Positions 470 to 17,179 of a stretch of DNA of 64,000 bases are shown in pieces (positions within the stretch are counted from its first letter, which is position 1; the number at the start of each line of letters is the position of its first letter). Origin of the DNA: Prochlorococcus sp. AG-442-N17 (GTDB taxonomy: Bacteria; Cyanobacteriota; Cyanobacteriia; PCC-6307; Cyanobiaceae); the NCBI GenBank assembly GCA_003212375.1, contig QCPY01000003.1:12308-76307 (forward strand), read 5' to 3'. The notes below the pieces were generated by a model, which worked only from the letters and a program-made list of their open reading frames with translations, made no database searches and was not told where the DNA came from. Made by a program: the position numbers and the translations under genes.

Positions 470-495
470 GGAATCAAAAAAATTTAGAGGAACTA
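470..495 (+). promoter_or_regulatory. Island motif copy 1, GGAATCA-N13-GAACTA (putative alternative-sigma promoter)
   Basis: GGAATCA 470-476, GAACTA 490-495; ATG at 529. Confidence 0.8.
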
Positions 496-1510: not shown

Positions 1511-1537
1511 TAGTTCTATCTTTTGTAAAATGATTCC
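1511..1537 (-). promoter_or_regulatory. Island motif copy 2, GGAATCA-N14-GAACTA
   Basis: + strand reads TAGTTC 1511-1516 and TGATTCC 1531-1537; ATG at 1481. Confidence 0.8.
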
Positions 1538-1563: not shown

Positions 1564-1589
1564 GGAATCAATTTTTGATTTCAGAACTA
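1564..1589 (+). promoter_or_regulatory. Island motif copy 3, GGAATCA-N13-GAACTA
   Basis: GGAATCA 1564-1570, GAACTA 1584-1589; ATG at 1621. Confidence 0.8.
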
Positions 1590-2388: not shown

Positions 2389-3426
2389 TTATCTATCATT
2401 CATTAATTGTTCTTGACGCATTTTATTTAATTCTTTTAGCTTTTTATAATTTATCTCGGCATCTTTATATAACATCCAATCATCTTTTTTATTCTCGCTT
2501 AATTTAAAGTACATATTACTAAGACTAATTAAAATATCACAAACTTTATTAAATATTTCAAATGAAATTAGTTTTTTTTCGTTCTCTTCAGAGTGTTCTT
2601 TTATTAGTTTAAATATTTTTTCTGTATTATTATATTTAAAGTATTGAGAAGGTTCAATTTTATATAGTTGCAAACTTTTTACTAAGATAAGTTGTAATTC
2701 TTTGCTCGGATAATGATAAGTTAAAAAATCCATCAAATACCAATTATAAAATCCCATTAACCCTTCCATATTTTGATTTTCAAGGTAATCAATGGGTATA
2801 TCTCTTACTTTATCCCATATATTCTCAATCTTTGTGTTTAATTCAGGAGTAAGTTCAAAAATTTCAGTAGATGCATAAGAATTTTCTTCTTTTGGTGATT
2901 TATCATTTCTAGACTTTTCTTTAAGCCAGGTATCAGAATTTATATTTATGAATGTATTTCTATATTTTTTTGAAATGAATTCGTCTTCTTTTACTTTTTT
3001 AATATTGTGGATAATATCTTTAACAAAATTACTTAAAGTAGTCCATTCTTTTGCATAATCATTAAATTTTAAATTAGAACTATAGAAGTTTAAAAGCATA
3101 TTAAAATTAATCAAATCTTTATCTGGAAGTTTTGAAACTATGTAGGCAATAAAATATGAAAAATTAGAACCATAATTTCCTGATAAAAGGTATTCATTGA
3201 AATCTCTAATAATTTTTTTTGAAGGATAATTATTCTCATCAATTTCCCAGTTATCCATAAGTGATCTGAAATCAATAATTATTTGTCTCATAAATTTTTC
3301 CTTATCAGAATTTAGATATGTATCATTAATTAGGATCTCATCATTATTGGTTATTTCTCTGAGTTTTTGCATAGATTGTCTCAGATTGAACCTTGCTGCT
3401 GAAGCTGATAGTCTTTTGAAAATCAT
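2389..3426 (-). CDS. Hypothetical protein (345 aa)
   Basis: Long ORF, no recognisable family; N-terminal SAARFNLRQS resembles the N-terminus of the vWA protein. Confidence 0.75.
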   Translation of the reverse strand: MIFKRLSASAARFNLRQSMQKLREITNNDEILINDTYLNSDKEKFMRQIIIDFRSLMDNWEIDENNYPSKKIIRDFNEYLLSGNYGSNFSYFIAYIVSKLPDKDLINFNMLLNFYSSNLKFNDYAKEWTTLSNFVKDIIHNIKKVKEDEFISKKYRNTFININSDTWLKEKSRNDKSPKEENSYASTEIFELTPELNTKIENIWDKVRDIPIDYLENQNMEGLMGFYNWYLMDFLTYHYPSKELQLILVKSLQLYKIEPSQYFKYNNTEKIFKLIKEHSEENEKKLISFEIFNKVCDILISLSNMYFKLSENKKDDWMLYKDAEINYKKLKELNKMRQEQLMNDR

Positions 3427-3479: not shown

Positions 3480-4175
3480 CTAATTATCGATTTTTATTTT
3501 TCTAAAGGCTTCCTTAAAATATAAATCTTCACATATTGGATTTATAGTGGGTTCTAATTCTAAACCTCTATTCAAATCATTAATTGCACCAGTGTAGTCT
3601 TCTAATTTTAAGCCTCTAATATCTGATCTTTTGAAGTATAGATCTGCTTTAAATGGATAAAGCTTAATTGCTAAAGAAAGATCTTTCTCAGCTCCACGAA
3701 ATTCTCCTGACATCTTTTTAACTAAAGCACGTTTTTCAAATAGATAATGATCATCTGGATTTAATAAAATTGCTATACCGTAATCATCTATTGCACCTTC
3801 AAAGTCCAGTAAATTCTCCTTGGTTATGGCTCTTAATTCGTAAGCATCTTTATTGTTTGGATTTAATTTAATTACTTCATTGAAATCTGATAATGCAGAT
3901 TTATATTCTTTCAAAGCAAGCATAGATGACCCTCTCTCGATAATAAAAAAATAACTTTTTGGATTTAATAAAATGGCAATATTTAAATCATCTATTGCAC
4001 TTCTATCATTTAGTTGATTTTTGTAACATAAAGCCCGAAAATAATATCCACAAGTTCTGTAGGGTATAGAGATTATTGCCTCTGAATATTTTTTGATGGC
4101 TTCAGTATAATTTTCATTAAATTCTTCCTCAAGACCTTCACTTATCAATAATTCATATCTATATATATTAGACAT
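3480..4175 (-). CDS. TPR repeat protein
   Basis: About six tandem 34-aa TPRs (SAIDDLNIAILLNP, GAIDDYGIAILLNP). Confidence 0.9.
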   Translation of the reverse strand: MSNIYRYELLISEGLEEEFNENYTEAIKKYSEAIISIPYRTCGYYFRALCYKNQLNDRSAIDDLNIAILLNPKSYFFIIERGSSMLALKEYKSALSDFNEVIKLNPNNKDAYELRAITKENLLDFEGAIDDYGIAILLNPDDHYLFEKRALVKKMSGEFRGAEKDLSLAIKLYPFKADLYFKRSDIRGLKLEDYTGAINDLNRGLELEPTINPICEDLYFKEAFRKIKIDN

Positions 4176-4203: not shown

Positions 4204-4229
4204 TAGTTCCTGCTTCTAATTTTGATTCC
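4204..4229 (-). promoter_or_regulatory. Island motif copy 4, GGAATCA-N13-GAACTA
   Basis: + strand TAGTTC 4204-4209, TGATTCC 4223-4229; ATG at 4175. Confidence 0.8.
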
Positions 4230-4253: not shown

Positions 4254-5087
4254 TTATAAAAAAAGTCCATTTTTATCTGAAAAACTTGATTGGTTTATTA
4301 AATATTGAATAATATTTTTTTTAATATTTTTTTTACTTGTTTCAATAAATTTGTAATACTCATCTATTAAATCATCAGCATATTCGCACTCATCAAATAA
4401 ACATTCGTTATTTTCTACTACATAATTAGAATATTTAACTATATCATTTTCATTAACACATTTATCCTCTATTTTTTTTAGCTTTTTAAAAAAATTACTT
4501 ATAGAAAAATATAAACTATTTTCTCCAATTGTTGAAAGTTCAATTATATCTACTGGATATTTATGCAATCGCCATTTCCATAAAGTTTCTATTGCAGAAT
4601 CAAGATATAAATAACAGTGTGCATCAAAAAAATTGTGTTTGGTTTTTATTGCTTTTTTATATTTAGTTTCAAATTCTTTTATTTCTTCTTCTTCTATGAA
4701 TACGCTGCCTTTTTTTAAGTCTATTTTGCTAGATTTCTCCCATTTAGATATTTGAGCAAGATCTTTTATATTTATAGGTTTATTATTCTCTAAAAAATAA
4801 TCTTTGGCAATTTGATTTTCAAGTGTTATATCTAATATTTGCATAATATAATTTAAAAAATCATCATAAATATAAATATTTTCGTCATAAAATTCTGTTT
4901 CTTTTGGAGAAAGAGAATAAAAATTTTCTTCAAAATATCTTAATTCTCTTACTAATGAATAAGTTTTATCTTTTCGTATAATTTTCTCAACTTCATAAAC
5001 ATATATTGCATTTTTTTCATCTAAAAAAAGATCACTTTGATAATAATTATTAAAGTTAACAGATTTAAAATTATATATGTTTTCCAC
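4254..5087 (-). CDS. Hypothetical acidic protein, third gene of the AAA/vWA operon
   Basis: Long ORF 12 nt downstream of the vWA gene. Confidence 0.7.
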   Translation of the reverse strand: MENIYNFKSVNFNNYYQSDLFLDEKNAIYVYEVEKIIRKDKTYSLVRELRYFEENFYSLSPKETEFYDENIYIYDDFLNYIMQILDITLENQIAKDYFLENNKPINIKDLAQISKWEKSSKIDLKKGSVFIEEEEIKEFETKYKKAIKTKHNFFDAHCYLYLDSAIETLWKWRLHKYPVDIIELSTIGENSLYFSISNFFKKLKKIEDKCVNENDIVKYSNYVVENNECLFDECEYADDLIDEYYKFIETSKKNIKKNIIQYLINQSSFSDKNGLFL

Positions 5088-5099
5088 TATTTTTATTAA

Positions 5100-6278
5100 T
5101 TATAATTTACTTTCATTTAGTCTTATAACTTCTCCAAAAGTAAAATATTCACTTTCTTGGCCTCCAGGAGTAATCACCCATAGAACAGGTAATTCAGGGG
5201 TCTTAATTGGTAAATAAGCGTAGCCATCGGTTAAATATATACATACTGCATCTTTTTGAAAAGTATTAATTTTTTCTACTTCTTCAAAGAAAGGATCAAA
5301 ACTGGTAAAACCTCCACCTTCTGGATCAGGAATATCTTTTTCTTTATCAATATCAAAAGGACCATATAATTCAGTATCTGCATACCAAAGTTTGCATACT
5401 AAATTTGGGTAAGAATTAACAATTCCACTAAGTTCACTTAAGAACTTTTCTAATTCTTCTGTTGATACAGAGCCACTTGTATCTATACAGCAAAAAATAA
5501 ATACTGTCTCACCTTTTAATTCCTCAAAATAAATTTCATTATGAATAAATCTTCTGTCAAATCCTTCAAAATCATTTGGAGTTCTAACTAGAAATCTCCA
5601 TAAATGAGCTTTCCAGTTTATTTCTGGCTTAGTTATTTCATCACAATGCCTTTTGAAGGATTCAGGAATATTTGTCTGATCAGATTGCTTTGCTACTAAA
5701 AGAGAATCAGTTATTGCTTTTTTCCAAAATTGCTTTTTAGCATTTTGTTTATTTAACTCGTTTAATTCATCTAATTCTTTATTAGCTTTATTCGAATTAA
5801 CATTGTTATTTTTATGTACTAAATCATCAATAGGTAGATTTATTTTCTCTTTCTTTTTGAGTAATATTTCATAAATCTCTTCTACTTTTAGACTTTCTAA
5901 ATCTTCATCTCTTATAGCATTAGCAGGTAATTTTACTGAAGGCTCTGATGCAATCATTCCATTGACCACTATATCCGCCGCAATATTGAAAATATAATTA
6001 TCTCTCTCGCCCTTTCTCGAGCAATGTAATAGAGCCATATGTAAAAGCTCATGCAGAAAAATTGCATCCCTTTCTTTAGGTTTGAAATTAATATAATTTT
6101 GAGGATGAAAAAATATCTTTTGCCCATCAGTCGCAGCTATAGGAAATTCTTTAGTAAATTCAATTTCTGCATACATTGAAAGTGAGGCGAAAAATGGAGA
6201 AGATTGCCTTAGTCTTAAACGTGTAGCACTTATGTAATTAAATAATTCTGAAGTATCTTTTTCTTTTTTATTTTTCAT
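5100..6278 (-). CDS. DUF2201-type metallopeptidase + vWA domain protein
   Basis: AATDG and HELLH (HExxH) motifs; NIAADIVVN; MIDAS IDTSGS; GGGFTSF; YLTDG. Confidence 0.85.
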   Translation of the reverse strand: MKNKKEKDTSELFNYISATRLRLRQSSPFFASLSMYAEIEFTKEFPIAATDGQKIFFHPQNYINFKPKERDAIFLHELLHMALLHCSRKGERDNYIFNIAADIVVNGMIASEPSVKLPANAIRDEDLESLKVEEIYEILLKKKEKINLPIDDLVHKNNNVNSNKANKELDELNELNKQNAKKQFWKKAITDSLLVAKQSDQTNIPESFKRHCDEITKPEINWKAHLWRFLVRTPNDFEGFDRRFIHNEIYFEELKGETVFIFCCIDTSGSVSTEELEKFLSELSGIVNSYPNLVCKLWYADTELYGPFDIDKEKDIPDPEGGGFTSFDPFFEEVEKINTFQKDAVCIYLTDGYAYLPIKTPELPVLWVITPGGQESEYFTFGEVIRLNESKL

Positions 6279-7297
6279 TTAATAATCAACTCCTGATAAT
6301 TTTTTAAATATTTCTGCATTTGAGGATCGCCCATTACAACTTTTGCTAGAGAGGTGAGTTGTTTTTTTTCTTTAAAATTGGCAACTATATCAGACGCAAA
6401 TACCTGTATCCATTCAGGAGTTGTATTTTTGAAAAGCCACTGAAAAACTTCTTTCACCTCTTCCGCTTTATCAGTTCTTTTAGTTAGGCCTGTTATGGTT
6501 GCCCATTGTGTTGATACCTGTTTGGGGAAATTTATTTTTTCTCCATTACCTTTGATTATTTGAGCAAGATTAGGAAGGTTTTTATATACATTTAAAAATG
6601 AATTAAATTCTTCAGCTGCACCATCTCCAATTGCAGTATTAATTGGAAGATTAAGTTTAAATAAGTTGCTTGCCATTTCCCAGGATCTTGGAGATGGCCA
6701 TGCCTTTTCCTCAAAATTTACTTTATGCAGTAAGGCAGGTCTGAATCCAAGAAAACTTATTATTTCTTCTGGTAAATCTTTTTTAAGAGCGTGAGATTTA
6801 AAACAAGAAAAATTTACTTCTACATCTAAATGAAGAAAGCGATTATTTAGAGGTGTAGGCATTTCAAAGACTGATGCACGATCTTCCTTCCTATTACCAG
6901 CAGCCCAAATAAGCCAATCTTTAGGAACCCTATAATTGCCAACTTTCCTATCAAGTATCAGTTGTTGTGCTACTCCCTGCATTGCAGGAGGTGCCATATT
7001 TATTTCATCAAGAAATAATATACCTTTTCCTGCTTTTGGAAGAAATTCTGGAGGATACCATTTAGAAATACCTATTTCTGTTTTGCTTTTAGGATGAATT
7101 GCTACAGGTAGTCCTCTAAGATCAGTAGGAGCTAATTGACTGAGTCTTAAATCAATAAAATCATATCCTTTATTTTTTGCGGCCTGGCTTACAATACTTG
7201 ATTTTCCTATTCCAGGAGGACCCCATATCATTGCACTTATAGTTAGTTCTTCAGAAATTAATCTTTCTAGAAACGCAGTTAATTGGGATGGAGTCAT
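6275..7297 (-). CDS. MoxR-like AAA+ ATPase; start reassigned to ATG 7297 (MTPSQL...)
   Basis: Walker A GPPGIGKS, Walker B LFLDE, AAGNR, NRF, SPRSW; the ORF-track extension to 7366 overlaps the promoter motif. Confidence 0.9.
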   Translation of the reverse strand: MTPSQLTAFLERLISEELTISAMIWGPPGIGKSSIVSQAAKNKGYDFIDLRLSQLAPTDLRGLPVAIHPKSKTEIGISKWYPPEFLPKAGKGILFLDEINMAPPAMQGVAQQLILDRKVGNYRVPKDWLIWAAGNRKEDRASVFEMPTPLNNRFLHLDVEVNFSCFKSHALKKDLPEEIISFLGFRPALLHKVNFEEKAWPSPRSWEMASNLFKLNLPINTAIGDGAAEEFNSFLNVYKNLPNLAQIIKGNGEKINFPKQVSTQWATITGLTKRTDKAEEVKEVFQWLFKNTTPEWIQVFASDIVANFKEKKQLTSLAKVVMGDPQMQKYLKNYQELIIK

Positions 7298-7324
7298 TAA
7301 TAAAAAAATAAATTTATCTATTAA

Positions 7325-7351
7325 TAGTTCTTTTCTTTCAAATGTGATTCC
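7325..7351 (-). promoter_or_regulatory. Island motif copy 5, GGAATCA-N14-GAACTA
   Basis: + strand TAGTTC 7325-7330, TGATTCC 7345-7351; ATG at 7297. Confidence 0.8.
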
Positions 7352-7426
7352 AAATAATTTCCTCAAATATAATTAGTGTTATTATTTTTAAATACTTATA
7401 GTAAGAAATTTAATGGTCTATATCAG

Positions 7427-10297
7427 ATGATTAAAAGTGCAAAAAATATAGGCTTTATTTTCGTTTTAATTTCAATTACTGTTTTAACTGGAAGATTTTT
7501 TTTAAACTCTAAAAATAATTTTATAAATACTGAAAGAACCAATATTGAAATAAGGACTATTTATGAAAAGCTTAAACCATTACTAGATAAAGCAAAATTA
7601 GCTTCTGATCAAGGCGATAATTTAAAGGTTATTAATATACTTAAACAAATAAACCAAAAAATTAATATTCTTGATGATTCAGAACTCCAAAAAAATATCT
7701 ATAGAGGTAAAAACCTTAATGCTATAGCTCAAAATTATCAAGTTATTGGATATTTTAAAGAGGCTGAGGATTATTATCTTAAAGCTGCAAAAGTTTATTT
7801 AGATATTCCTTTTAAAGAAAATTCTCAATATGTTTTAGAAAACTATTTATATTTATCTAATCTCTATTCCGAAATAGAGTATTACGATAGAGGTATAGCA
7901 ACTTTGCTGATCGCAAATAATTTAATAGAGGAACAAATTGGAAAAAAAATACCTGAAAGTTATATTATTGCTGGGGAAATTGGAGAATTATATTTAGATA
8001 AAGGTGAATTTCTAAGCGCCGAAGTTTTTATTGAAGCCGCGATAAAAGGTTTAGAGGAATTGAATATAAATCATGAAATGAAAAGTAAGTATCAACTTGA
8101 ATTGGCAGATTTATATATAAGACAAAAAAAGTATATAGAGTCTGAAAAACTACTTAGCCAGTTAATCAAAAAAAAATACTATAAAAATCCATCTATATTT
8201 GGTTTATTAACAAAAGTTTTATTAGAACAAAAAAGATTTGATGATGCAGAAAATATGGCAATTTCATTACTAAGTGAAAATGAAAAAAACTATAAAAATA
8301 AAATTAATCATTATCATCCATATCTCTTAGCAAATATTGCTTTTATATATGATTTTCAAGGACTTTTTTATAAGTCAAATCCTTATCATATGCGTTTAGT
8401 TAATCCTGATTATGACATTTCATTTTTGGATAATGATTTTAAAATATCTATTTTAAATAATGCAGGATTTAACTTTATGAGTTTGGGCATTTATGAACCA
8501 GCGGAAATTTTCTTTAAAGCAGCATTAGAAGCAAATAAAATTAGATTTAATAAAGATCATGAGAAAAATATAAAAACATTATCAAATTTGGCTTTGTTTT
8601 ATGCCATAAGAAATGAATATAATACATCTAAAGATTACGGCTATAGGGCTTTAACAAAATTTTTTGAAACTATTCAAGAAAAAGTACAAGACTTAAACAT
8701 TATTGAAAGACAGAAATATCTTTCTGAATCATATCTTGATGTTCATTTATTCCCTTTTGCTTTGATTGAACAAGATAGCTCTTATAAAAACTTGGCATTA
8801 TTTTCAAGAATAAATTATCAGGGTTTATTACAGGATATAGAAAATAGACAAAATAGATTAAAAATTCTTGATCCTGAAATTAAGCAGTTAAGAAATAATC
8901 TAAAACTTATAGAAAGTAAATTATCTTCAAATAAAACCTTAAACTCTGAAAAATTTAGAAGAGAACTATTCTCAAGGAAAATCGAACTTGAAAAATCTTT
9001 AAATGTATTATTACCTAAATTAAATCCAATAATTTATGACGCCGACGATATAGCAAGTGTAATACCAAAAGATTCTTTATTAATTGAATATCAAAAGTAT
9101 GATAGTGCAAAAAAAGAACCTTTTAAGAATTTAAAACCCAAGGAAAAATATTTAGCTTTGATTCTTTCTCCTGATGGAAATATTTCATCTTTTGATTTAG
9201 GTTCTGCGGAAGTTATTGAATCAACGATAGATGCTGCAACTAAAGCTACTAAATTAAAAACAAATAATGCTTTGCAAAAATGGAGAGAAGTTAGTGATCT
9301 TATTATAAAACCTCTTACTGAAGAAATTAATCAAAAAGATAGATTAATCATTTCGCCTGATTCTGCCCTAAATAAAGTTGCATATTCTGCATTGGGATCG
9401 CCTTTAAGCGAGAACTTATTAAATGATGATTTTCAAGTAAATTTAATTACCGCAGGTAGAGATTTATTGGATATTAATCAAGCAAATTCTCATAAAAGTA
9501 CTATGCCCATTGTTATTGCAAATCCTGATTTTGGAAAACCAAAGTCAAATATCAGGAGATTTAAAAATATAAAAAGTGATTTTTATAAAAGAACTGAAAC
9601 CGAAATATTAGAGTATAAATTAGACCTAAAAGGTACCTCATCACAATCATGGAAACTTCTTCCTTTCTCCAAACTAGAGGGACAAGATATTAAAGAAATA
9701 ATTAATGCACAACTTTTTATGAATGAAGAAGCAAAAGCTTCATTGATATTTGAAAATAATATTTCTCCAAAAATTATTCATATAGCAAGTCATTCTTTTT
9801 ATCATGATGCTTATTATGATTCAGCAATTGAAGACTATAATAAAAATCCGCTTAATCGAAGTGGAATAGTATTTGCAGGAGCAAATTTAAATTTTGAAAA
9901 TGATAATGATGATGGATTTTTAACTGCGTTAGAAATTTCAAGACTTGATCTTAGAGGGACTGAATTATTTGTTGTATCAGGTTGTGAATCTGCAATGGGA
10001 GACTTAAGAATTGGAGAAGGTATTTATGGTTTAAAAAGATCTATTGCAGTAGCAGGGGCTCAATCAAGTTTGCTTTCTTTATGGAATATAAGAGATGATT
10101 CAACGGCGATATTTATGACTTCTTTTTATAAAAGACTTAAGAAAGGGGAAACAAAATCTGAGGCACTATATAACACTCAAAGAGATTTTAGAGAGGGTAA
10201 AATCAAAAGTAGTAATCCTGAATTATATGATTGGAGTAAGCCATTTTATTGGGCGCCTTTTCAATTAAGTGGGGATTGGAAGTCGATAGAATTATAA
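7427..10297 (+). CDS. Membrane-anchored/exported TPR-CHAT (caspase-like, HetF-type) protease
   Basis: N-terminal hydrophobic helix IGFIFVLISITVLTG; TPRs; CHAT motifs LIISPDSALN, IHIASHS (His), VSGCES (Cys), SLW, YWAPF; likely start ATG 7427 (ORF track: GTG 7376). Confidence 0.9.
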   Translation: MIKSAKNIGFIFVLISITVLTGRFFLNSKNNFINTERTNIEIRTIYEKLKPLLDKAKLASDQGDNLKVINILKQINQKINILDDSELQKNIYRGKNLNAIAQNYQVIGYFKEAEDYYLKAAKVYLDIPFKENSQYVLENYLYLSNLYSEIEYYDRGIATLLIANNLIEEQIGKKIPESYIIAGEIGELYLDKGEFLSAEVFIEAAIKGLEELNINHEMKSKYQLELADLYIRQKKYIESEKLLSQLIKKKYYKNPSIFGLLTKVLLEQKRFDDAENMAISLLSENEKNYKNKINHYHPYLLANIAFIYDFQGLFYKSNPYHMRLVNPDYDISFLDNDFKISILNNAGFNFMSLGIYEPAEIFFKAALEANKIRFNKDHEKNIKTLSNLALFYAIRNEYNTSKDYGYRALTKFFETIQEKVQDLNIIERQKYLSESYLDVHLFPFALIEQDSSYKNLALFSRINYQGLLQDIENRQNRLKILDPEIKQLRNNLKLIESKLSSNKTLNSEKFRRELFSRKIELEKSLNVLLPKLNPIIYDADDIASVIPKDSLLIEYQKYDSAKKEPFKNLKPKEKYLALILSPDGNISSFDLGSAEVIESTIDAATKATKLKTNNALQKWREVSDLIIKPLTEEINQKDRLIISPDSALNKVAYSALGSPLSENLLNDDFQVNLITAGRDLLDINQANSHKSTMPIVIANPDFGKPKSNIRRFKNIKSDFYKRTETEILEYKLDLKGTSSQSWKLLPFSKLEGQDIKEIINAQLFMNEEAKASLIFENNISPKIIHIASHSFYHDAYYDSAIEDYNKNPLNRSGIVFAGANLNFENDNDDGFLTALEISRLDLRGTELFVVSGCESAMGDLRIGEGIYGLKRSIAVAGAQSSLLSLWNIRDDSTAIFMTSFYKRLKKGETKSEALYNTQRDFREGKIKSSNPELYDWSKPFYWAPFQLSGDWKSIEL

Positions 10298-11491
10298 GCA
10301 TTTATTATTATTTATTACTGTAGATTTCGCTTTCTCAATAACTTTTGAATCAGGTGCTTTTTCTGAAAAAAGAAGTGCCAAAGCCATATCTTGCTCTTTT
10401 TTAAGTTTATTATTTATATTTTTTATCCAAGCAGATTTACTACTCCCAATCTTTTTGATTTCATTAGAAAGCTTTTTAAATGATTTTTGTGGACTAGCTT
10501 TTAAGGTTATATCTAAATATTCTTCGGAAGATATACTATTCTGCGCGAAGCTAATAAGATATTCTTCATTTGGCTCTACAGGTTTAATTGGCCATTGAAT
10601 AGGTTTATATGATTTTTTATTGGAGTTAATTTCTCTTGACCAGATAATTTTCCCATTCTTTGAAATTATAATTTTTTCAACTTTAGTTTTTGGAAAAATT
10701 AAGGGTTTATCAAAAGATAAATTAACAATATTTTTTGTACCATCAAATGATGAATTGGGACTTAATAAACAAATTTTTATATTATTTTCCTCAGAACTAC
10801 TTCTTGTATATATAGGCTCTAATTTATTTGCTGAAATAGAGGCAAGATTATAAACTAATCTTGGTTTGAAAAGGGATGGTGTGGCAAATATACCAGCTAG
10901 AATTAATAGACCTAAACTTAATTTTTTTCTATGAAAAATTAAATTTTCTAATAAATTTATTCTTATTTTACTTTCTCTTAATCCTTCTCTGGATAGAGCT
11001 TCTAAATCTAGAATTTGAATCATTGATAGAAGTCTGTTTATGCCACCTTTAAAAGAGTTAATTGGAATATTTACATATTTATTTTTTGGATTAGGTTCTT
11101 TAATTAGGTTCTTAAATTCTTTTTCAGTAATTAATCCAGGGAATTCGATTAAACCATTTTCTTCATCTATGCTCATCGCAAGAATTAATTGAGGGGCTGA
11201 GTTCTTTTTGTACCATCTTTTCAAAGGAATAATTGCTTCATCAGAACTTATTCCTGTAATTACTATTTGAATATAAAACTTGTTTATCTCAACTAAACAA
11301 TCTAAATCTTTAATACTTGAAATTAATTTGACTTCAAGATTTAAGTTTTCATCAGAAATAACTTTTTTCAAAGCAACTATAGAAGCTTGATCAAGACTTT
11401 TTACTTTTTCTATATCTATAGACACTGCACTATCAGAGATAGGCTTTGCCTCAAAGAAATTATCATCAGAATTAGTCAATTTTCCCTTCAT
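10292..11491 (-). CDS. Single-pass membrane protein with DUF1822-like N-domain and DUF928-like C-domain (candidate anti-sigma)
   Basis: EAIIPLKRW...LILAMSIDEE..IEFPG resembles DUF1822; TM about aa 191-207 after HRKK; ICLLSP...PLIF...IIWS...WP..P..P.EEY resembles DUF928; 4-nt overlap with the upstream sigma-like gene. Family calls from memory. Confidence 0.6.
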   Translation of the reverse strand: MKGKLTNSDDNFFEAKPISDSAVSIDIEKVKSLDQASIVALKKVISDENLNLEVKLISSIKDLDCLVEINKFYIQIVITGISSDEAIIPLKRWYKKNSAPQLILAMSIDEENGLIEFPGLITEKEFKNLIKEPNPKNKYVNIPINSFKGGINRLLSMIQILDLEALSREGLRESKIRINLLENLIFHRKKLSLGLLILAGIFATPSLFKPRLVYNLASISANKLEPIYTRSSSEENNIKICLLSPNSSFDGTKNIVNLSFDKPLIFPKTKVEKIIISKNGKIIWSREINSNKKSYKPIQWPIKPVEPNEEYLISFAQNSISSEEYLDITLKASPQKSFKKLSNEIKKIGSSKSAWIKNINNKLKKEQDMALALLFSEKAPDSKVIEKAKSTVINNNKCL

Positions 11492-12846
11492 TTTTTAATC
11501 AAATAATTGACGGTATCCTGCAAAATAGATGTATTTTTATTTGATTGTCTTTTAGTAATATATTCAATCAAACTATTTATAACTTTATCTATTTCTAAAG
11601 GACTTGTTTTCATCCCTTTAAATTCCTTAAGATCCTTTAGTTTTAATGCTGTTTTAAGTGAGATTTTTTCTGCTAAGGTTTTTTCTTTTAATAATTTACT
11701 AACCCACCCTTGCTTATGGTTGCATCTCTTTGCTATGTCTCTTTGGCTATATCCTTTTGAATATAGTTCCCATGCCAATTTTCTATCTTTATCTCTAAGC
11801 CATATTATTTTTTCTTTTTTAAAAATAATTTCTAAGGTATCTTTGGCTAATTCTTTTGATAATTTCTTAATTAGATATATTTGTCTTTCTTCTTTAATTT
11901 GATCCTCATTGCTAGATGCCTCGTATTTTTTTTCTAAAAGAAATTGTTTAATTGATGGCATAGATTCAGGAGACTTTAATCCTTTCTCATATTTTCTGAT
12001 TGCTGCAGCAATACATTCCAAATTATCTAATGTACTTTGTTTGGGATTTAGGGTATTAATAAATGCCTGATTAGGTACCCAACCACTAATCCTTCCATAC
12101 TTTTTTTTGTATGCTGCTTTGGCCTTCTTATAATTGATAAGATAACTTCTGTGAAGACTAATAATCTCATCATTATTTATTTTTAAGGTATTAAATTCCT
12201 TGCAGGCTTCTAAAATTCTTTTTGTACTCGTATCAGCAATTAAAGACCAGTCACTTTGTAATCTTAAATTACATTTAACCAGATATTTTTTTAGGCTAGG
12301 CTCTGATTTGATTTGATGTGTAGTCCAGGTGTCTAGGCTAGATAATTTTTTATTGAAGGTTTTTATTATTTTTGCAGAGAATGGATATAAATTATTAGAG
12401 GTTATGATCGATAAACTTTGCCAATTAAAAGGTTTTTTAAATTTTTTGTCGTTTACTGATGAAGTTTTTATAAATTTTTCTCCTCTATCATTCAATACAT
12501 ATGAAAGCATTGTTAGATAATCTATTTCATGTAATTCCGTATGCTTTTTATAGAGATAATCTATATTTTTCTTTATAGGATCACTTAACCTGCATCTTAT
12601 ACATAAGATTGGATCAATGCTTTCTGAAAACTTTTTACTTAGTTCTAATAACATATTATCCGATGCTTTAGATTTGATTTCAGAAACTATATTGTTTTTA
12701 TCAAGATATTCACTGCAGACATTAAAGTTCTTTTCTTTTATATCTTTTCCGAAAGAATTTAAATAAATTAAGGTTTCGTAAGGTGTGTTCAATATTGACA
12801 AGAAATTTAAATTCTGACTAAGTATACAATTAATTTCCATTTTCAA
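11488..12846 (-). CDS. Divergent sigma70-like DNA-binding protein of the cyanobacterial type found next to DUF1822 genes
   Basis: Region-2-like IIKTFNKKLSSLDTWT; region-4-like HTH LAWELYSKGYSQRDIAKRCNHKQGWVSKLL; motifs LCIRC and SDWSLIADT. Confidence 0.65.
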   Translation of the reverse strand: MKMEINCILSQNLNFLSILNTPYETLIYLNSFGKDIKEKNFNVCSEYLDKNNIVSEIKSKASDNMLLELSKKFSESIDPILCIRCRLSDPIKKNIDYLYKKHTELHEIDYLTMLSYVLNDRGEKFIKTSSVNDKKFKKPFNWQSLSIITSNNLYPFSAKIIKTFNKKLSSLDTWTTHQIKSEPSLKKYLVKCNLRLQSDWSLIADTSTKRILEACKEFNTLKINNDEIISLHRSYLINYKKAKAAYKKKYGRISGWVPNQAFINTLNPKQSTLDNLECIAAAIRKYEKGLKSPESMPSIKQFLLEKKYEASSNEDQIKEERQIYLIKKLSKELAKDTLEIIFKKEKIIWLRDKDRKLAWELYSKGYSQRDIAKRCNHKQGWVSKLLKEKTLAEKISLKTALKLKDLKEFKGMKTSPLEIDKVINSLIEYITKRQSNKNTSILQDTVNYLIKK

Positions 12847-12867
12847 GTAGATGACTTAAATAAAATT

Positions 12868-12893
12868 GGAATCAAAAGATATTTTCAGAACTA
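12868..12893 (+). promoter_or_regulatory. Island motif copy 6, GGAATCA-N13-GAACTA
   Basis: GGAATCA 12868-12874, GAACTA 12888-12893; TTG start at 12922. Confidence 0.8.
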
Positions 12894-12921
12894 AATAGGA
12901 TTAGTTAATTATTCAACTATC

Positions 12922-13737
12922 TTGGTACAAACAAAATTAAAATATGCATATAGTGAAAATCAAGATTTATTTGGATCTTTTCTTAATGAGTCTTCAGTTA
13001 AGATGGTTCATCAGGACTATTTTGGGGCTATTGAAGCTGTTACTAAAGCTATAAATTTAAATAATAAATATCCAATTCCCTTTATCAGGAGAGCAGAGAT
13101 AAGATACAAGATTAAAGATTATAAAAATGCAAATGATGATTTAAGAGAAGCTTTTAAATTAAAAAAAAATTGTCCAGAAAATTATTTATTTAGAGCTTAC
13201 TTCTTAGCTTATTCGATAAATAAAAACCTTGAAAATAGTAAAGATTCCTTTATTAATTTAGAAAAAGCTATAAATCTGAGGAATTCATCAAAAGCAAAAA
13301 TATGGCCAATTGAGATTTATTTTTTATATGAGAAAAAGGGCGACTTTTTAAAAGAGTCAGGTAAATATGATCATGCAATTTTTGAATATTCAAAAGCGAT
13401 TGGATCATATATTAGTGATCCAATTGCTAATGCGAGACTGCATTCTAAAAGAGGCTGGTTAAACTACCATGAAAGTAATTATGCATATGCAATAAATGAT
13501 TTTTCGATAGCTATAAAGAAAGCTAAACAAATAGATAAATATCATTACTTCATGGCAAGAGGATTTTCTCTGATAAAGATTAATAATATCGAAGCTGCTT
13601 TTGACGATTTTAAAAATGCTTTGGAATGTAATCAACTTGCAATTGAATTTTATAAAGATTTTTTTTTGAATTTTGTTGAACGAGAAATTTGTAATTTGCT
13701 ACAGGTTTATTTTGAAATAAGGCTAAAAAATGATTAA
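12922..13737 (+). CDS. TPR repeat protein
   Basis: DYFGAIEAVTKAINLN and YAYAINDFSIAIK repeats. Confidence 0.85.
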   Translation: MVQTKLKYAYSENQDLFGSFLNESSVKMVHQDYFGAIEAVTKAINLNNKYPIPFIRRAEIRYKIKDYKNANDDLREAFKLKKNCPENYLFRAYFLAYSINKNLENSKDSFINLEKAINLRNSSKAKIWPIEIYFLYEKKGDFLKESGKYDHAIFEYSKAIGSYISDPIANARLHSKRGWLNYHESNYAYAINDFSIAIKKAKQIDKYHYFMARGFSLIKINNIEAAFDDFKNALECNQLAIEFYKDFFLNFVEREICNLLQVYFEIRLKND

Positions 13738-14404
13738 AAAGAAATTTTATAAATTATCACCCTCTATCAAAGCTGAAAAGATAGCAACAAGAGCAAAGAA
13801 TTGTGATGATGAAATAAATTATAAATATGCAATTATGGAGATATCTAAAGCTCTAGAAGTAAACGATGAATGTGAAACTACATACTTTATAAGAGGAGAT
13901 TTATACTCCCAAATGGATGGATATCATGATCAAGCTATTAGCGACTTTACTAAGGCAATTGAATTAGATCCAAATGATTTCGCAAAATATAATGCTAGGG
14001 GAAGGGCATATCTAAAAGCAGAAAAATATGAAAATGCCATTAATGATTTTACAAAAGTAATTGAGATGAGTATGTCAACTTTATTGATGGACTCTTCTTC
14101 AGTTTTTGAAGAGAGAGGTTTTGCATTTTTAAAATGCGGATTTTTTGGTAAAGCAATTAGTGATTTTTCAGAATCATTGAAAGATTCCGAAGATGAGATT
14201 AAGTTTTTGTGCAGAGCTATGGCATTAGCCAAAAATGATAATTATGATGGAGCATTAAATGACTTGATAGCAGCATCAAATATTAACGGTAATTGCCTAA
14301 AGGAGAATAAAAACTTTTTATCCGATTTTCCAAAAGATTTTAAAGCAATTTTATTTATACATTTCCCTAAAAAATATCTTGATGATTTGAATTTATCTAT
14401 TTAA
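13730..14404 (+). CDS. TPR repeat protein
   Basis: QAISDFTKAIELDPN, NAINDFTKVIE; overlaps the previous stop. Confidence 0.9.
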   Translation: MIKKKFYKLSPSIKAEKIATRAKNCDDEINYKYAIMEISKALEVNDECETTYFIRGDLYSQMDGYHDQAISDFTKAIELDPNDFAKYNARGRAYLKAEKYENAINDFTKVIEMSMSTLLMDSSSVFEERGFAFLKCGFFGKAISDFSESLKDSEDEIKFLCRAMALAKNDNYDGALNDLIAASNINGNCLKENKNFLSDFPKDFKAILFIHFPKKYLDDLNLSI

Positions 14405-14895: not shown

Positions 14896-14922
14896 AGAAT
14901 CATCAATACCTATTCAGAACTA
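14896..14922 (+). promoter_or_regulatory. Island motif copy 7, AGAATCA-N14-GAACTA (one mismatch)
   Basis: AGAATCA 14896-14902, GAACTA 14917-14922; ATG at 14950. Confidence 0.75.
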
Positions 14923-14949: not shown

Positions 14950-15810
14950 ATGACATTTCAGGATTTTCTGAGAAACTCTTCAGTTTATTTTTCAATTATT
15001 TCTTTAATAATTTCAATAATTTTGCTTGGATTTTACATAAGAAATAGGTCTCAGTTATTCATGCCTGATGAATATAAAACTATTAAGCGTATCGTAAGCA
15101 AATTTGCAGATAGCAATAATCTTGGAAACCATCCAATTACTTTTACAATTATTTCTGGCAGCAGGGTCTACTGGATAGCAAAATCTCTAGGTGTATGTTC
15201 TGAGGATTTTTGTTACTTTATGAGGAATATAAATCCATTTATTCCGTATAAAGGAAAGTCGGCTGAGGAATTGAATGAAGCTATTCGTCAGACATACATT
15301 GTAAATGGAATAGAAGCCTACGCCTGGCCTAATGGGACAGTGGCAATTAGTCGTTCATCTTTCAGAAGTGCTTCTGACAGGGAATCTTATCTTGCTTTTG
15401 TAATTGGCCATGAAATTAGTCATATATTAAATAATGACAGTTTTCAGAATTCCCTTCGTACCAGTAAAGAGGGATTAGGTTTAAAACCAAAAAAAAAGAC
15501 ACTCATTGGCTATGGCATTTCCCGAGAAGCTGAAAGTAAAGCAGATATTAAATCCGCAGAGATGCTAATAAATGCAGGCTATTTAAAAGAAACTCCAGTG
15601 GAGGCTCATGATTTTTTTGCAAGGCTTAATGGGTATGGCTACGCAACTGAGAAGGATAGCAGTCACCCCGGGTATGAGGAGAGGAGAAAAAATCTTAAAA
15701 AGTTCATAGCCAAATATAGAGAAAAAGATTCAGATAATTCAACTGGAACAAATGGTAAGTGGATTTATAACAGGAAAGAAAATACTCTGACTTTCAAAGT
15801 TCAGTATTAG
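14950..15810 (+). CDS. M48 family zinc metallopeptidase, N-terminally membrane anchored
   Basis: AYAWPNG, LAFVIGHEISH, SREAESKAD, SHPGYEER; N-terminal TM. Confidence 0.88.
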   Translation: MTFQDFLRNSSVYFSIISLIISIILLGFYIRNRSQLFMPDEYKTIKRIVSKFADSNNLGNHPITFTIISGSRVYWIAKSLGVCSEDFCYFMRNINPFIPYKGKSAEELNEAIRQTYIVNGIEAYAWPNGTVAISRSSFRSASDRESYLAFVIGHEISHILNNDSFQNSLRTSKEGLGLKPKKKTLIGYGISREAESKADIKSAEMLINAGYLKETPVEAHDFFARLNGYGYATEKDSSHPGYEERRKNLKKFIAKYREKDSDNSTGTNGKWIYNRKENTLTFKVQY

Positions 15811-15909: not shown

Positions 15910-16875
15910 TTAAAAACTTAATTGATAGTGACTGTATCTCATCAACATTTTTATATCTCTGTGTCCACTGCATGCACTTATCTCCAGAGCATTCATTCCT
16001 GAACCCCACATTCTGCTTATAGCTATATGTCTTAGATCATGAAATCTTAGATTTTCTAAACCTGCTTTCTTCCTTACTCTGTCAAATCCATTTCTTGCAG
16101 ATCCCTTTGTCAGGTTTATTACAATTCCCTCTTTGCTTTTAAAGCTTTTGAGAAGTTCTTTTGCTTTATGGGGTAAAGGAATCATTCTCATGGAACTGGA
16201 ACTTCCTCTTGCCGCACATTCCTTTCTTTGGACATGAAGTCTGTTGTTCTTTAAATCGATATCTCTCCAGTTCAGGCTTAAAAGTTCTGAGCGGCGAAAG
16301 CCAGTGACCAGTGCAAGCTTTGTGAGTCTCAGATGATTTGGGTTGGACATCTCAGACAGTTCATATAGAAGTTTTTTCTCGTCTTGATCAGTGAAAAAAG
16401 GAGCTCTAGCATCTCCAGTCCCTCTCACTCTCAGATGCCTTGCGGGGTTATCTTTTATTTCAGCTCCTCTTTCATCTCTTGCCCAGTCAATCAATACTCT
16501 CAATATCCTCAGTTCCCGCATAACTGTATTTGGTTTCACTTTAAGTAATCTTTCATCTCTCCAGACTGCAAAATGCATTATCTGCAAGTCTTTCAGAGGA
16601 ATATCTCCAAGCCAGCTTTCTGCTGTCACCCTGAGAGGATATTTTTCATTCTCCGCACTGCGGTGCAGCAGAAGAGGACCATTTATATAGTCATTGATTG
16701 CCTCTCCCAGGGTGATAGGGATATCATTTGAAACCTTTTTTGTTCTTTCTTCGACTGCATCTGCCCATGATTGGGCCAGATCTCTGGAAAGAAAAGTTCT
16801 TGACCTAGGGCCTACATAATTCTTCCTTCTGATAAGGACCTGCCAGCGGCTGCCGCTTCTTCTGATTGTTGCCAT
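15910..16875 (-). CDS. Tyrosine recombinase / integrase; likely start ATG 16875
   Basis: TGFRRSEL (R), HDLRH (HxxR), GH, MLMRY (Y); N-terminal arm-binding-like MATIRRSGSRWQVLIRR; GC higher than the flanks. Confidence 0.93.
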   Translation of the reverse strand: MATIRRSGSRWQVLIRRKNYVGPRSRTFLSRDLAQSWADAVEERTKKVSNDIPITLGEAINDYINGPLLLHRSAENEKYPLRVTAESWLGDIPLKDLQIMHFAVWRDERLLKVKPNTVMRELRILRVLIDWARDERGAEIKDNPARHLRVRGTGDARAPFFTDQDEKKLLYELSEMSNPNHLRLTKLALVTGFRRSELLSLNWRDIDLKNNRLHVQRKECAARGSSSSMRMIPLPHKAKELLKSFKSKEGIVINLTKGSARNGFDRVRKKAGLENLRFHDLRHIAISRMWGSGMNALEISACSGHRDIKMLMRYSHYQLSF

Positions 16876-16924
16876 TTTGGTGTCATCGTTTGTGTGATGC
16901 ACCTCCAGATATCTACCTTTAAAA

Positions 16925-16960
16925 CAGAAAAGTGGACCCGAAAACGGACGTCCACTTCTG
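16925..16960 (-). terminator. Strong hairpin between tRNA-Thr and the integrase (terminator-like on the minus strand)
   Basis: AAGTGGAC-CCG-AAAA-CGG-AC-GTCCACTT; on the minus strand the stem runs into TTTTCTGTTTT. Confidence 0.55.
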
Positions 16961-17015
16961 AATAATTTCTTTCTGCGATAGTGGTAATCTCACTGATACC
17001 AAGCTATCCCGCGAG

Positions 17016-17087
<72 letters not shown>

Positions 17088-17097
17088 AATTTTAAAG

Positions 17098-17179
17098 TGG
17101 GCCGGGTTGGATTTGAACCAACGTAGGCAGAGCCAGCGGATTTACAGTCCGCCCCCTTTAACCACTCGGGCACCGACCC
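17098..17179 (-). tRNA. trnY: tRNA-Tyr(GTA)
   Basis: GGGTCGGTGCCCGAGTGG...GCGGACTGTAAATCCGC...GTTCAAATCCAACCCGGCCCA with a long variable arm. Confidence 0.97.

Follow-up and report, generated by a model that had tools for sequence, protein, structure and literature searches.

Do three adjoining genes on a genomic island of Prochlorococcus sp. AG-442-N17 form a switch that would relay a signal across the cytoplasmic membrane to a private set of promoters? The genes lie in a stretch of 64,000 nucleotides of contig QCPY01000003.1 (the whole stretch being referred to here as the window) and encode a protein with tetratricopeptide repeats (TPR) and a CHAT protease domain, a single-pass membrane protein and a sigma-like regulator. 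A sequence-only reading of the window had proposed that the protease, activated by its TPR sensor, cuts the membrane protein as an anti-sigma factor and releases the regulator to induce the surrounding genes. Our analyses support this interpretation in part. We interpret the trio as the Prochlorococcus variant of a cyanobacterial module in which sigma-like, DUF1822 and CHAT-protease genes occur together, and its operation as a membrane-spanning, protease-gated switch is, for the whole chain of events, the explanation that we slightly favour.

Modules of this kind are already known by computation. Kaur, Iyer, Burroughs and Aravind (eLife 2021; PMC8195603) described neighbourhoods of an EACC2-caspase, an 'ECF sigma factor' (ECF, extracytoplasmic function) and DUF1822 in a computational catalogue without experiments, and suggested that the sigma factor mediates the action of the caspase. 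The trio shares with that module the sigma-like family and the N-terminal half of DUF1822, both travelling with a caspase-like CHAT protease, as well as the proposed logic leading from a sensor protease to transcription via a sigma factor. In contrast, the protease appears here to be of a signal-TPR-CHAT type with an export signal, and not of the EACC2-CHAT-(transmembrane)-CHASE2 type; the DUF1822-type protein has lost its C-terminal half, in place of which it has a transmembrane helix and an outside domain; the module comes with a defined regulon motif; and the host is a streamlined Prochlorococcus, whose 1.18-Mb assembly (72% complete) contains four sigma genes of group-1/2 size and no ECF-sized match, in keeping with the remark in the sequence-only reading that such strains lack ECF-type sigma factors. 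What is new here is the export signal of the protease, the outside domain of its presumed substrate, the motif that tracks the sigma-like gene and a model of sigma/DUF1822 binding.

The three proteins and a model of sigma/DUF1822 binding

The genes of the regulator and the membrane protein, both on the minus strand, are coupled through a 4-nt overlap (11488-11491), and the 3' ends of the TPR-CHAT and membrane genes converge with an overlap of 6 nt (10292-10297), an arrangement that had been recognised at the outset.

The 450-aa regulator consists of a segment resembling sigma regions 2.3/2.4 (residues ~156-196), a long insert, a helix-turn-helix (HTH) resembling sigma region 4 (~309-400) and a C-terminal helical tail. 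Pfam returned weak HTH matches, and none of 51 members of the sigma-like family matched the NCBIfam model named after HetZ. A profile of the family recovered 564 representative proteins, and a wider profile found matches in 55 of 301 sampled cyanobacterial genomes and in 45 of 131 genera. A second tier of these matches was formed by Nostocales proteins of ~390 aa that score 107-117 bits against TIGR02937, the NCBIfam sigma70-ECF model (cut-off 42.9). The family aligned with these Nostocales sigma factors over window residues 156-385 (hhalign, 98.6%, E 8e-16), and because of these profile links the 450-aa protein is placed by sequence comparison in the sigma-70 superfamily, as a very divergent member with a long insert and extensions. 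TIGR02937 was in addition matched, with scores under its cut-off, by 22 of the 51 family members. The evidence for a region 4 HTH is of modest score: alignment with nine cyanobacterial ECF sigma factors gave 87.7% and E 3.4e-6 at region 4.2, the top structural rows were the sigma-4 domains of AlgU and sigma-E (Z 4.5-4.9), the sigma-4 rows of AlgU, sigma-E, SigL and WhiG in VIA covered residues 309-400 with Z 3.9-4.9 and 15-19% identity, and region 4 of SigF was matched among PDB sequences at E 2.5e-4. On this distant profile homology, we infer that the protein may act as a sigma factor.

The 399-aa membrane protein is predicted to comprise a cytoplasmic N-domain (~20-170), one transmembrane helix (~191-209) and an extracytoplasmic C-domain (~240-399). 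Its AF2 model displays an alpha/beta N-domain, a disordered stretch (175-238) that holds the helix, and a C-domain built as a beta-sandwich plus helices, and all 20 membrane proteins of the family have one hydrophobic helix at ~183-210 whose N-side flank is richer in Lys/Arg. The N-terminal half is homologous to DUF1822: family residues 33-167 aligned with DUF1822 positions 49-189 (hhalign, 96.6%, E 5.2e-10), the family HMM matched three true DUF1822 proteins at 4e-8 to 1e-6, and the structure matched an Atlas DUF1822 cluster with a TM-score of 0.59. The whole domain (PF08852, ~370 positions) was not found, the window protein having no Pfam match and three of the 20 family members matching with a best E of 0.022; its C-terminal half is replaced by the transmembrane helix and a different domain. 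The N-domain (residues 27-165) also models as PD-(D/E)xK nuclease-like, the 10 best PDB rows being all nucleases or resolvases with modest Z (5.7-7.6). The lysine position of the D...ExK signature is not conserved, and the N-domain is therefore probably an inactive binding domain.

In the alignment of the 20 members, C241 and C398 of the outside C-domain are invariant, as is R230 in the disordered juxtamembrane linker, which makes Arg230 a candidate cleavage site. The C-domain matched cyanobacterial proteins of ~200 aa without a name (TM-score 0.72). An assignment to DUF928 (PF06051) was considered: hhalign against eight DUF928 proteins was not significant (E 0.21-0.35) and collinear at low stringency, a DUF928 cluster appeared at rank 11 by language-model features (score 0.86), and an Atlas cluster with DUF928 in 24% of its members gave a TM-score of 0.48. 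The resemblance is kept as a lead.

The sigma-like protein and residues 1-185 of the membrane protein were modelled as a complex in three runs with three controls, a pairing that the sequence-only reading had put forward as a check. The model passed its controls, with an ipSAE of 0.79 (0.78-0.79 among the runs) against 0.00 for the best control. In calibration, 58 of 80 solved complexes attained this ipSAE, as did 2 of 110 mismatched pairs, a rough measure since our own alignments were used. The runs shared at least 76% of contacts, and the partner pLDDT was at least 81. The modelled interface on the sigma-like protein comprises residues 92-104, 174-208, 249-253, 281-285 and 381-421, touching in the manner of an anti-sigma factor both the region-2-like part (174-208) and the segment just after the HTH (381-421). 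The model thus makes binding between the sigma-like factor and the DUF1822-type domain likely.

The third protein, for which an upstream GTG start at 7376 is less likely, carries an N-terminal hydrophobic segment resembling a signal or anchor, TPRs at ~100-445 and the CHAT domain at ~620-950. It belongs to the CHAT family (PF12770, clan CD; cut-off 24 bits; E-value in Table 1), with a putative catalytic dyad formed by His785/His789 (IHIASHS) and Cys853 (VVSGCES). The His and Cys columns (HIASH, SGCES) are invariant in 27 Prochlorococcus homologues, and the N-terminal signal-peptide- or anchor-like segment is found in essentially all of 29 Prochlorococcus TPR-CHAT proteins. Two or three TPR-CHAT paralogues surround one sigma-like/membrane pair in several loci (L021, L022, L024, L026, L030, L031), and these may represent several sensors for one switch.

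Linkage in Prochlorococcus and the canonical cassette of other cyanobacteria

A first-level search found relatives of both smaller proteins solely in Prochlorococcus and marine metagenomes, with identities down to 31-43%. In each of the 21 distinct Prochlorococcus loci examined, the sigma-like and membrane genes stand side by side in the same orientation, mostly with an overlap of 1-4 nt, and between one and three TPR-CHAT genes are found no more than a few kb away; one of the loci comes from the cultured strain MIT 0603. The expectation that the three genes should co-occur in other genomes was thus borne out in every Prochlorococcus locus examined, and in canonical form in other cyanobacteria. 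In a survey of 285 Prochlorococcus genomes, one per species, the sigma-like gene was detected in 26, and in 12 of the 92 of high quality; the module is an accessory, island-borne trait. That the circuit was 'imported', as stated in the sequence-only reading, is not evident: the divergence of the family inside Prochlorococcus runs deep (31-43% identity), and the island matches the genome in its AT content (G+C content along the window is 25-34%).

A gene with a Pfam DUF1822 match stands directly after the gene of a distant sigma-like homologue in Gloeocapsa PCC 73106, Tumidithrix and Okeania; a CHAT-CHASE2 gene comes next in Gloeocapsa PCC 73106 and Tumidithrix, while the Okeania contig ends. 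The canonical trio is thus present in two loci (L014 and L016). The ~390-aa Nostocales sigma factors are likewise followed by canonical DUF1822 (E 1e-120). Taken together, homology to the known module and the linkage of the genes are observations in which we have high confidence.

Five canonical DUF1822 proteins have no transmembrane helix, and the CHAT-CHASE2 proteins have no N-terminal signal, so that their CHAT domain is predicted to be cytoplasmic. The protease and the DUF1822-type protein therefore appear from their sequences to have changed compartment together, as expected if one of them is the substrate or partner of the other.

Conserved runs without an adjacent CHAT gene were also observed in Nostocales (L077:1494-4518, L078:1417-4425, L079:1492-3857), consisting of a 390-aa sigma-70-family protein and canonical DUF1822, with a DUF4870 protein as the next product in L077 and probably in L078.

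An island-private motif and its presumed regulon

The motif GGAATCA-N12-14-GAACTA occurs in the window as six exact copies and one near-match, all within the island (Table 1). Four are exact 26-mers (470, 1564, 4204-4229 and 12868; chance expectation 0.01), and three have a 13-nt spacer (1511-1537, 7325-7351 and 14896-14922), the last with two mismatches. All six exact matches of the 1.18-Mb assembly fall in the island, and the motif being private to it supports the earlier description of the circuit as orthogonal. As had been noted, the trio is bracketed by two copies (7325-7351 and 12868-12893) that are directed away from it, and no copy with zero or one mismatch faces any of its three genes; the single match with two mismatches that falls within the CHAT coding sequence (9217-9242) is no more than expected by chance.

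All seven copies lie ~27-34 nt upstream of a start codon. The genes behind them encode TPR-only proteins in three or four cases (the product of 1621-2361 being TPR-like by eye only), and the operon that faces away from the CHAT end encodes a MoxR-like AAA ATPase (its start placed at 7297 by the motif copy before it, which gives 340 aa as in its homologues), a DUF2201 metallopeptidase/von Willebrand factor A (vWA) protein and a 277-aa protein without assignment.

Table 1. Positions in the window of the trio, the motif copies, their presumed targets and the island border
Feature	Position	Strand	Evidence or context
TPR-CHAT caspase-like protease, 956 aa	7427-10297	+	Pfam CHAT E 2.8e-53, TPR_12
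Anti-sigma-like membrane protein, 399 aa, single-pass	10292-11491	-	hhalign, HMM, AF2 model
Divergent sigma-70/ECF-like factor, 450 aa (452 aa with alternative start)	11488-12840 (or 12846)	-	Profile comparison
Motif copy	470-495	+	Upstream of TPR gene 529-1266
Motif copy	1511-1537	-	30 nt upstream of 69-aa ORF 1272-1481; back to back with 1564-1589
Motif copy	1564-1589	+	Upstream of TPR-like gene 1621-2361
Motif copy	4204-4229	-	Upstream of TPR gene 3480-4175, then unassigned gene 2389-3426
Motif copy, 13-nt spacer	7325-7351	-	27 nt upstream of AAA ATG 7297; CHAT end of core
Motif copy, exact	12868-12893	+	28 nt upstream of TPR gene 12922; sigma-like end of core
Motif copy, degenerate (AGAATCA...)	14896-14922	+	Upstream of M48 gene 14950-15810
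Presumed regulon operon	4254-7297	-	AAA 6275-7297, DUF2201 5100-6278, 277-aa protein 4254-5087; Pfam
Two TPR-only genes	12922-13737, 13730-14404	+	Behind motif copy 12868
Membrane-anchored M48 zinc peptidase, presumed regulon member	14950-15810	+	Pfam Peptidase_M48 E 3e-14
Tyrosine integrase (island border)	15910-16902	-	Pfam Phage_integrase
tRNA-Thr (island border)	17015-17087	-	ARAGORN
tRNA-Tyr (island border)	17097-17179	-	ARAGORN

The 324 kb of the 21 related loci hold 50 motif copies, all but one outside recognised genes, which stand before M48, AAA, TPR and small genes; where a downstream open reading frame (ORF) was called, most copies lie ~25-45 nt upstream of its start. An M48 gene stands beside the trio in seven distinct loci and carries the motif also in L001, L003 and L017, and the AAA+DUF2201 pair is again a neighbour of the trio in four loci (L003, L017, L019 and L020), of which L017 and L019 also have the motif before it. 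Of the 285 genomes surveyed, 20 have a full-length sigma-like gene, and 16 of these contain at least two exact copies, versus 5 of the 265 others, counts that are descriptive because relatedness makes the genomes non-independent; among the five, three are incomplete and contain island-like copies. Copies cluster within ~20 kb of the sigma-like gene. The HTH is nearly invariant among regulators that are 31-43% identical overall, which fits a motif that is nearly constant despite this divergence. Overall, we consider it fairly probable that the motif is the promoter of the sigma-like factor.

Further observations concern variants of the motif and of the regulator. Other loci, too, have small ORFs behind the motif. 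At L034:9235-9260 and G034:C1:375217-375242 a copy falls within the 3' end of the sigma-like gene, before the membrane gene, and another is located upstream of the operon at L004:4047-4073, which suggests feedback in some variants, absent from the copy in the window. The 27-nt motif-like string GGAATCATGAAAATATTTTTGGAACTA occurs singly and in identical form in G006, G013, G110, G129, G196 and G266, most of which lack the module; a chance resemblance, conserved as part of a core gene, is the probable explanation. A divergent sigma-like subfamily of ~550 aa, matching the N-terminal 325 positions only (E ~1e-40), is present in five Prochlorococcus genomes (G141, G170, G187, G231, G284) with no motif copy or at most one.

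The island occupies the first 17 kb of the window, its right end being marked by the integrase and the two tRNA genes. A search of the 29 kb of assembled contig leftwards revealed no direct repeat of at least 14 nt from the tRNA-Thr/integrase junction (16900-17100) as a left att site, and the left border is undefined. On the same contig, just left of the window and directly upstream of the first TPR gene of the island, lies a restriction- or defence-like row (L013:6305-12547) of a C5 cytosine methylase (Dcm), a HATPase_c_3 protein, a Z1-domain protein and an unassigned gene. The same island slot in another strain carries different defence-like cargo, with a reverse transcriptase (RVT_1), a SWIM-domain protein and a 927-aa protein after the TPR-CHAT gene (L001:16903-21317). 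A scan of 7200-13100 for sigma-70-type promoters and terminators found fewer promoter-like sites than in shuffled sequences and nothing useful. With an identity of 90-99%, short metatranscriptome contigs from one seawater study match parts of the CHAT, membrane, sigma-like, TPR, M48 and AAA genes. Their coverage is shallow, they may stem from carried-over DNA and they do not reveal transcript starts, and we weigh them neither for nor against any reading.

A membrane-spanning switch and its alternatives

In RseA/sigma-E (with DegS and RseP) and RsiW/sigma-W (with PrsW), membrane anti-sigma factors are subject to regulated proteolysis. The trio resembles these systems in its single-pass anti-sigma candidate with a cytoplasmic sigma-binding domain and an outside domain, in a cascade that an outside site-1 protease would start, in the translational coupling of the two genes and in a bipartite, presumed ECF-like promoter with a GGAA-type -35. 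It differs in that the sigma-binding domain has a DUF1822/PD-(D/E)xK-like alpha/beta fold and not a helical one, the candidate site-1 protease is a clan-CD cysteine protease and not a serine or metallo-protease, and the sigma factor has a large insert and extensions.

We propose that the membrane-bound 399-aa protein would, through its DUF1822-type N-domain, keep the 450-aa factor inactive at the cytoplasmic membrane by contacting the region-2-like and region-4-like parts of the factor. The TPR-CHAT protein, exported or anchored with its bulk outside the cytoplasm, would meet a signal through its TPR part and cut the outside part of the membrane protein, with the invariant Arg230 of the linker as the candidate site. 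The stump would then be removed as in RseA/sigma-E, a step that is proposed by analogy. The freed factor would drive the island-private GGAATCA-N12-14-GAACTA promoters, whose output would comprise several TPR proteins, the MoxR-AAA/DUF2201 pair, the M48 peptidase and small ORFs. The content of this regulon (TPR proteins, MoxR/vWA-metallopeptidase, membrane M48) leans towards envelope or protein-quality control, and the island context towards defence.

Several points weigh against this scheme. The window regulator scores 19.9 bits with TIGR02937 (E 4e-4), far from the cut-off of 42.9; the case for a sigma factor, as first proposed, comes from distant profile homology and not from this direct score. 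The alignment that bridges to the Nostocales sigma factors starts at the region-2.3/2.4 equivalent (residue 156), leaving regions 2.1-2.2 outside, and structure searches recover solely the sigma-4-like domain, with low Z. The motif could equally be the operator of an ordinary HTH activator. Signal-peptide and topology calls were made from hydropathy and charge only. The window TPR-CHAT protein showed no BLAST similarity to the EACC2-type CHAT-CHASE2 protein of locus L016 (best E 0.13), and the protease partner is therefore, as judged by sequence, not orthologous between the two types of module. An extracytoplasmic location is less usual for a CHAT cysteine protease, the CHAT domain of HetF being cytoplasmic. 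That CHAT cuts the membrane protein in its outside part is conceivable and falls somewhat short of probable.

If the 450-aa protein were an ordinary HTH activator or repressor, the motif would be an operator of two half-sites, and the membrane protein would sequester the regulator and release it in the way proposed above. We regard this as unlikely. PDB sequence and fold searches recovered only the HTH/sigma-4-like part, as such a regulator would predict: sequence searches with the sigma-like profiles found generic HTHs, with those of MarR, DeoR and LsrR scoring equal to SigF; the whole model had no Foldseek match in pdb at E <= 1e-3 and a best Z of 5.8, on helical proteins, in VIA wide; an Atlas search returned cyanobacterial clusters without names; and the N-terminal 300 residues showed no recognised fold in these whole-model searches. 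No sigma model reached its cut-off, and the motif halves GGAATCA and AGAACTA are alike (GAAyy-A), as in a direct repeat. However, the sigma-70 profile homology extends upstream of the HTH into the region-2.3/2.4 equivalent, the sub-cutoff TIGR02937 alignments span model positions 42-156, beyond the HTH, and the modelled partner contacts two separate parts of the factor, as an anti-sigma factor would. Furthermore, the distance between motif and start codon is nearly constant (~30 nt), and the surroundings offer no canonical -10 hexamer (TAnnnT) apart from it; the motif therefore behaves as a promoter itself.

A second alternative accepts the sigma/anti-sigma pair and denies CHAT the role of gate: the outside domain would sense the signal, or other proteases (M48, a site-2 protease) would cut, with the exported TPR-CHAT proteins being co-located effectors or acting on other substrates. 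The multiple TPR-CHAT paralogues around one pair, the lack of orthology with the EACC2-type protease and the Nostocales pairs with no CHAT among the next genes (L077-L079) would agree with it, as would the record of 'secreted CHAT domain-containing proteins' as cargo of marine Synechococcus island modules, in which no sigma factor is mentioned (PMC7522525). Against it, at least one CHAT gene accompanies the pair, convergent or adjacent, in every Prochlorococcus locus examined, the CHAT gene has no regulon motif, as expected for a constitutive sensor part, the DUF1822-type protein and the protease appear to have moved jointly to another compartment, and CHAT proteases that cut regulator-binding proteins have two experimental precedents (PMC9457339, PMC10028731). 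We hold this alternative to be rather improbable. Finally, a conflict system for anti-phage defence or programmed death, in which the caspase-like protease kills and the sigma/DUF1822 pair merely tunes accessory genes, would suit the flexible island beside integrase and tRNA genes, the Dcm-HATPase-Z1 cluster upstream, the reverse transcriptase beside the module in L001, the patchy distribution (26/285 genomes) and the classing of such caspase systems with immunity and apoptosis (PMC8195603), yet is very improbable, as PADLOC models had no significant match among nine island proteins and the regulon resembles protein remodelling and envelope quality control more than known toxins.

The two precedents, which the sequence-only reading had quoted accurately, are both close to the protease-gated switch in logic (PMC9457339, PMC10028731). 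In Anabaena PCC 7120 the CHAT domain of HetF cleaves PatU3, for which R117 matters, and PatU3 sequesters HetZ (PMC9457339), which is required for DIF1 promoters with their -35-centred motif (PMC7377430); in common with our proposal, a cyanobacterial CHAT protease cuts an inhibitor that sequesters a transcription regulator, with Arg at the cleavage site. In HetF, by contrast, the CHAT domain is cytoplasmic and the TPRs are outside, and its pathway serves heterocyst development and cell division, a pathway absent from Prochlorococcus. In type III-E systems, which include a sigma factor, Csx30 is cut by the TPR-CHAT protein Csx29 (PMC10028731, PMC9825189); the cleaved protein is functionally linked to an ECF-type sigma (CASP-sigma), and the system forms a proteolytic transcription switch. 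The Prochlorococcus locus differs in having no Cas7-11, crRNA array or Csx30/31 (every large ORF in 1-17 kb falls in another family, and none there has the size of Cas7-11 or resembles it), in an activation that cannot be RNA-guided and in a protease that is probably extracytoplasmic.

Returning to the protease-gated switch, its fullest form would have an exported caspase-like protease as the site-1 protease of a membrane anti-sigma factor that binds sigma through a domain of DUF1822, nuclease-like fold, in a self-contained outside-to-inside switch that travels with flexible islands and activates its own regulon upon phage attack or envelope damage; we advance this form tentatively, as it is rather doubtful. 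The variant makes the 2021 prediction easier to test, since its architecture puts presumed substrate and protease in one compartment and offers a single invariant linker Arg. The presumed output promoters are sharply defined (26-27 nt, with seven copies here and ~50 in related islands), and the carrier MIT 0603 is cultured.

If the scheme is true, a caspase-like protease would join the known site-1 proteases of anti-sigma factors, and DUF1822, widespread in cyanobacteria, would gain a function. The fusion of the DUF1822 N-terminal half with what is possibly a DUF928-like domain would, in the fullest form of the switch, explain the joint work of separate DUF1822 and DUF928 proteins in the canonical four-gene cassette. 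High-light Prochlorococcus encodes very few regulators and has almost no signal-transduction systems, and it is because of this scarcity, in the most abundant phototroph, that an additional and portable signal pathway would be notable.

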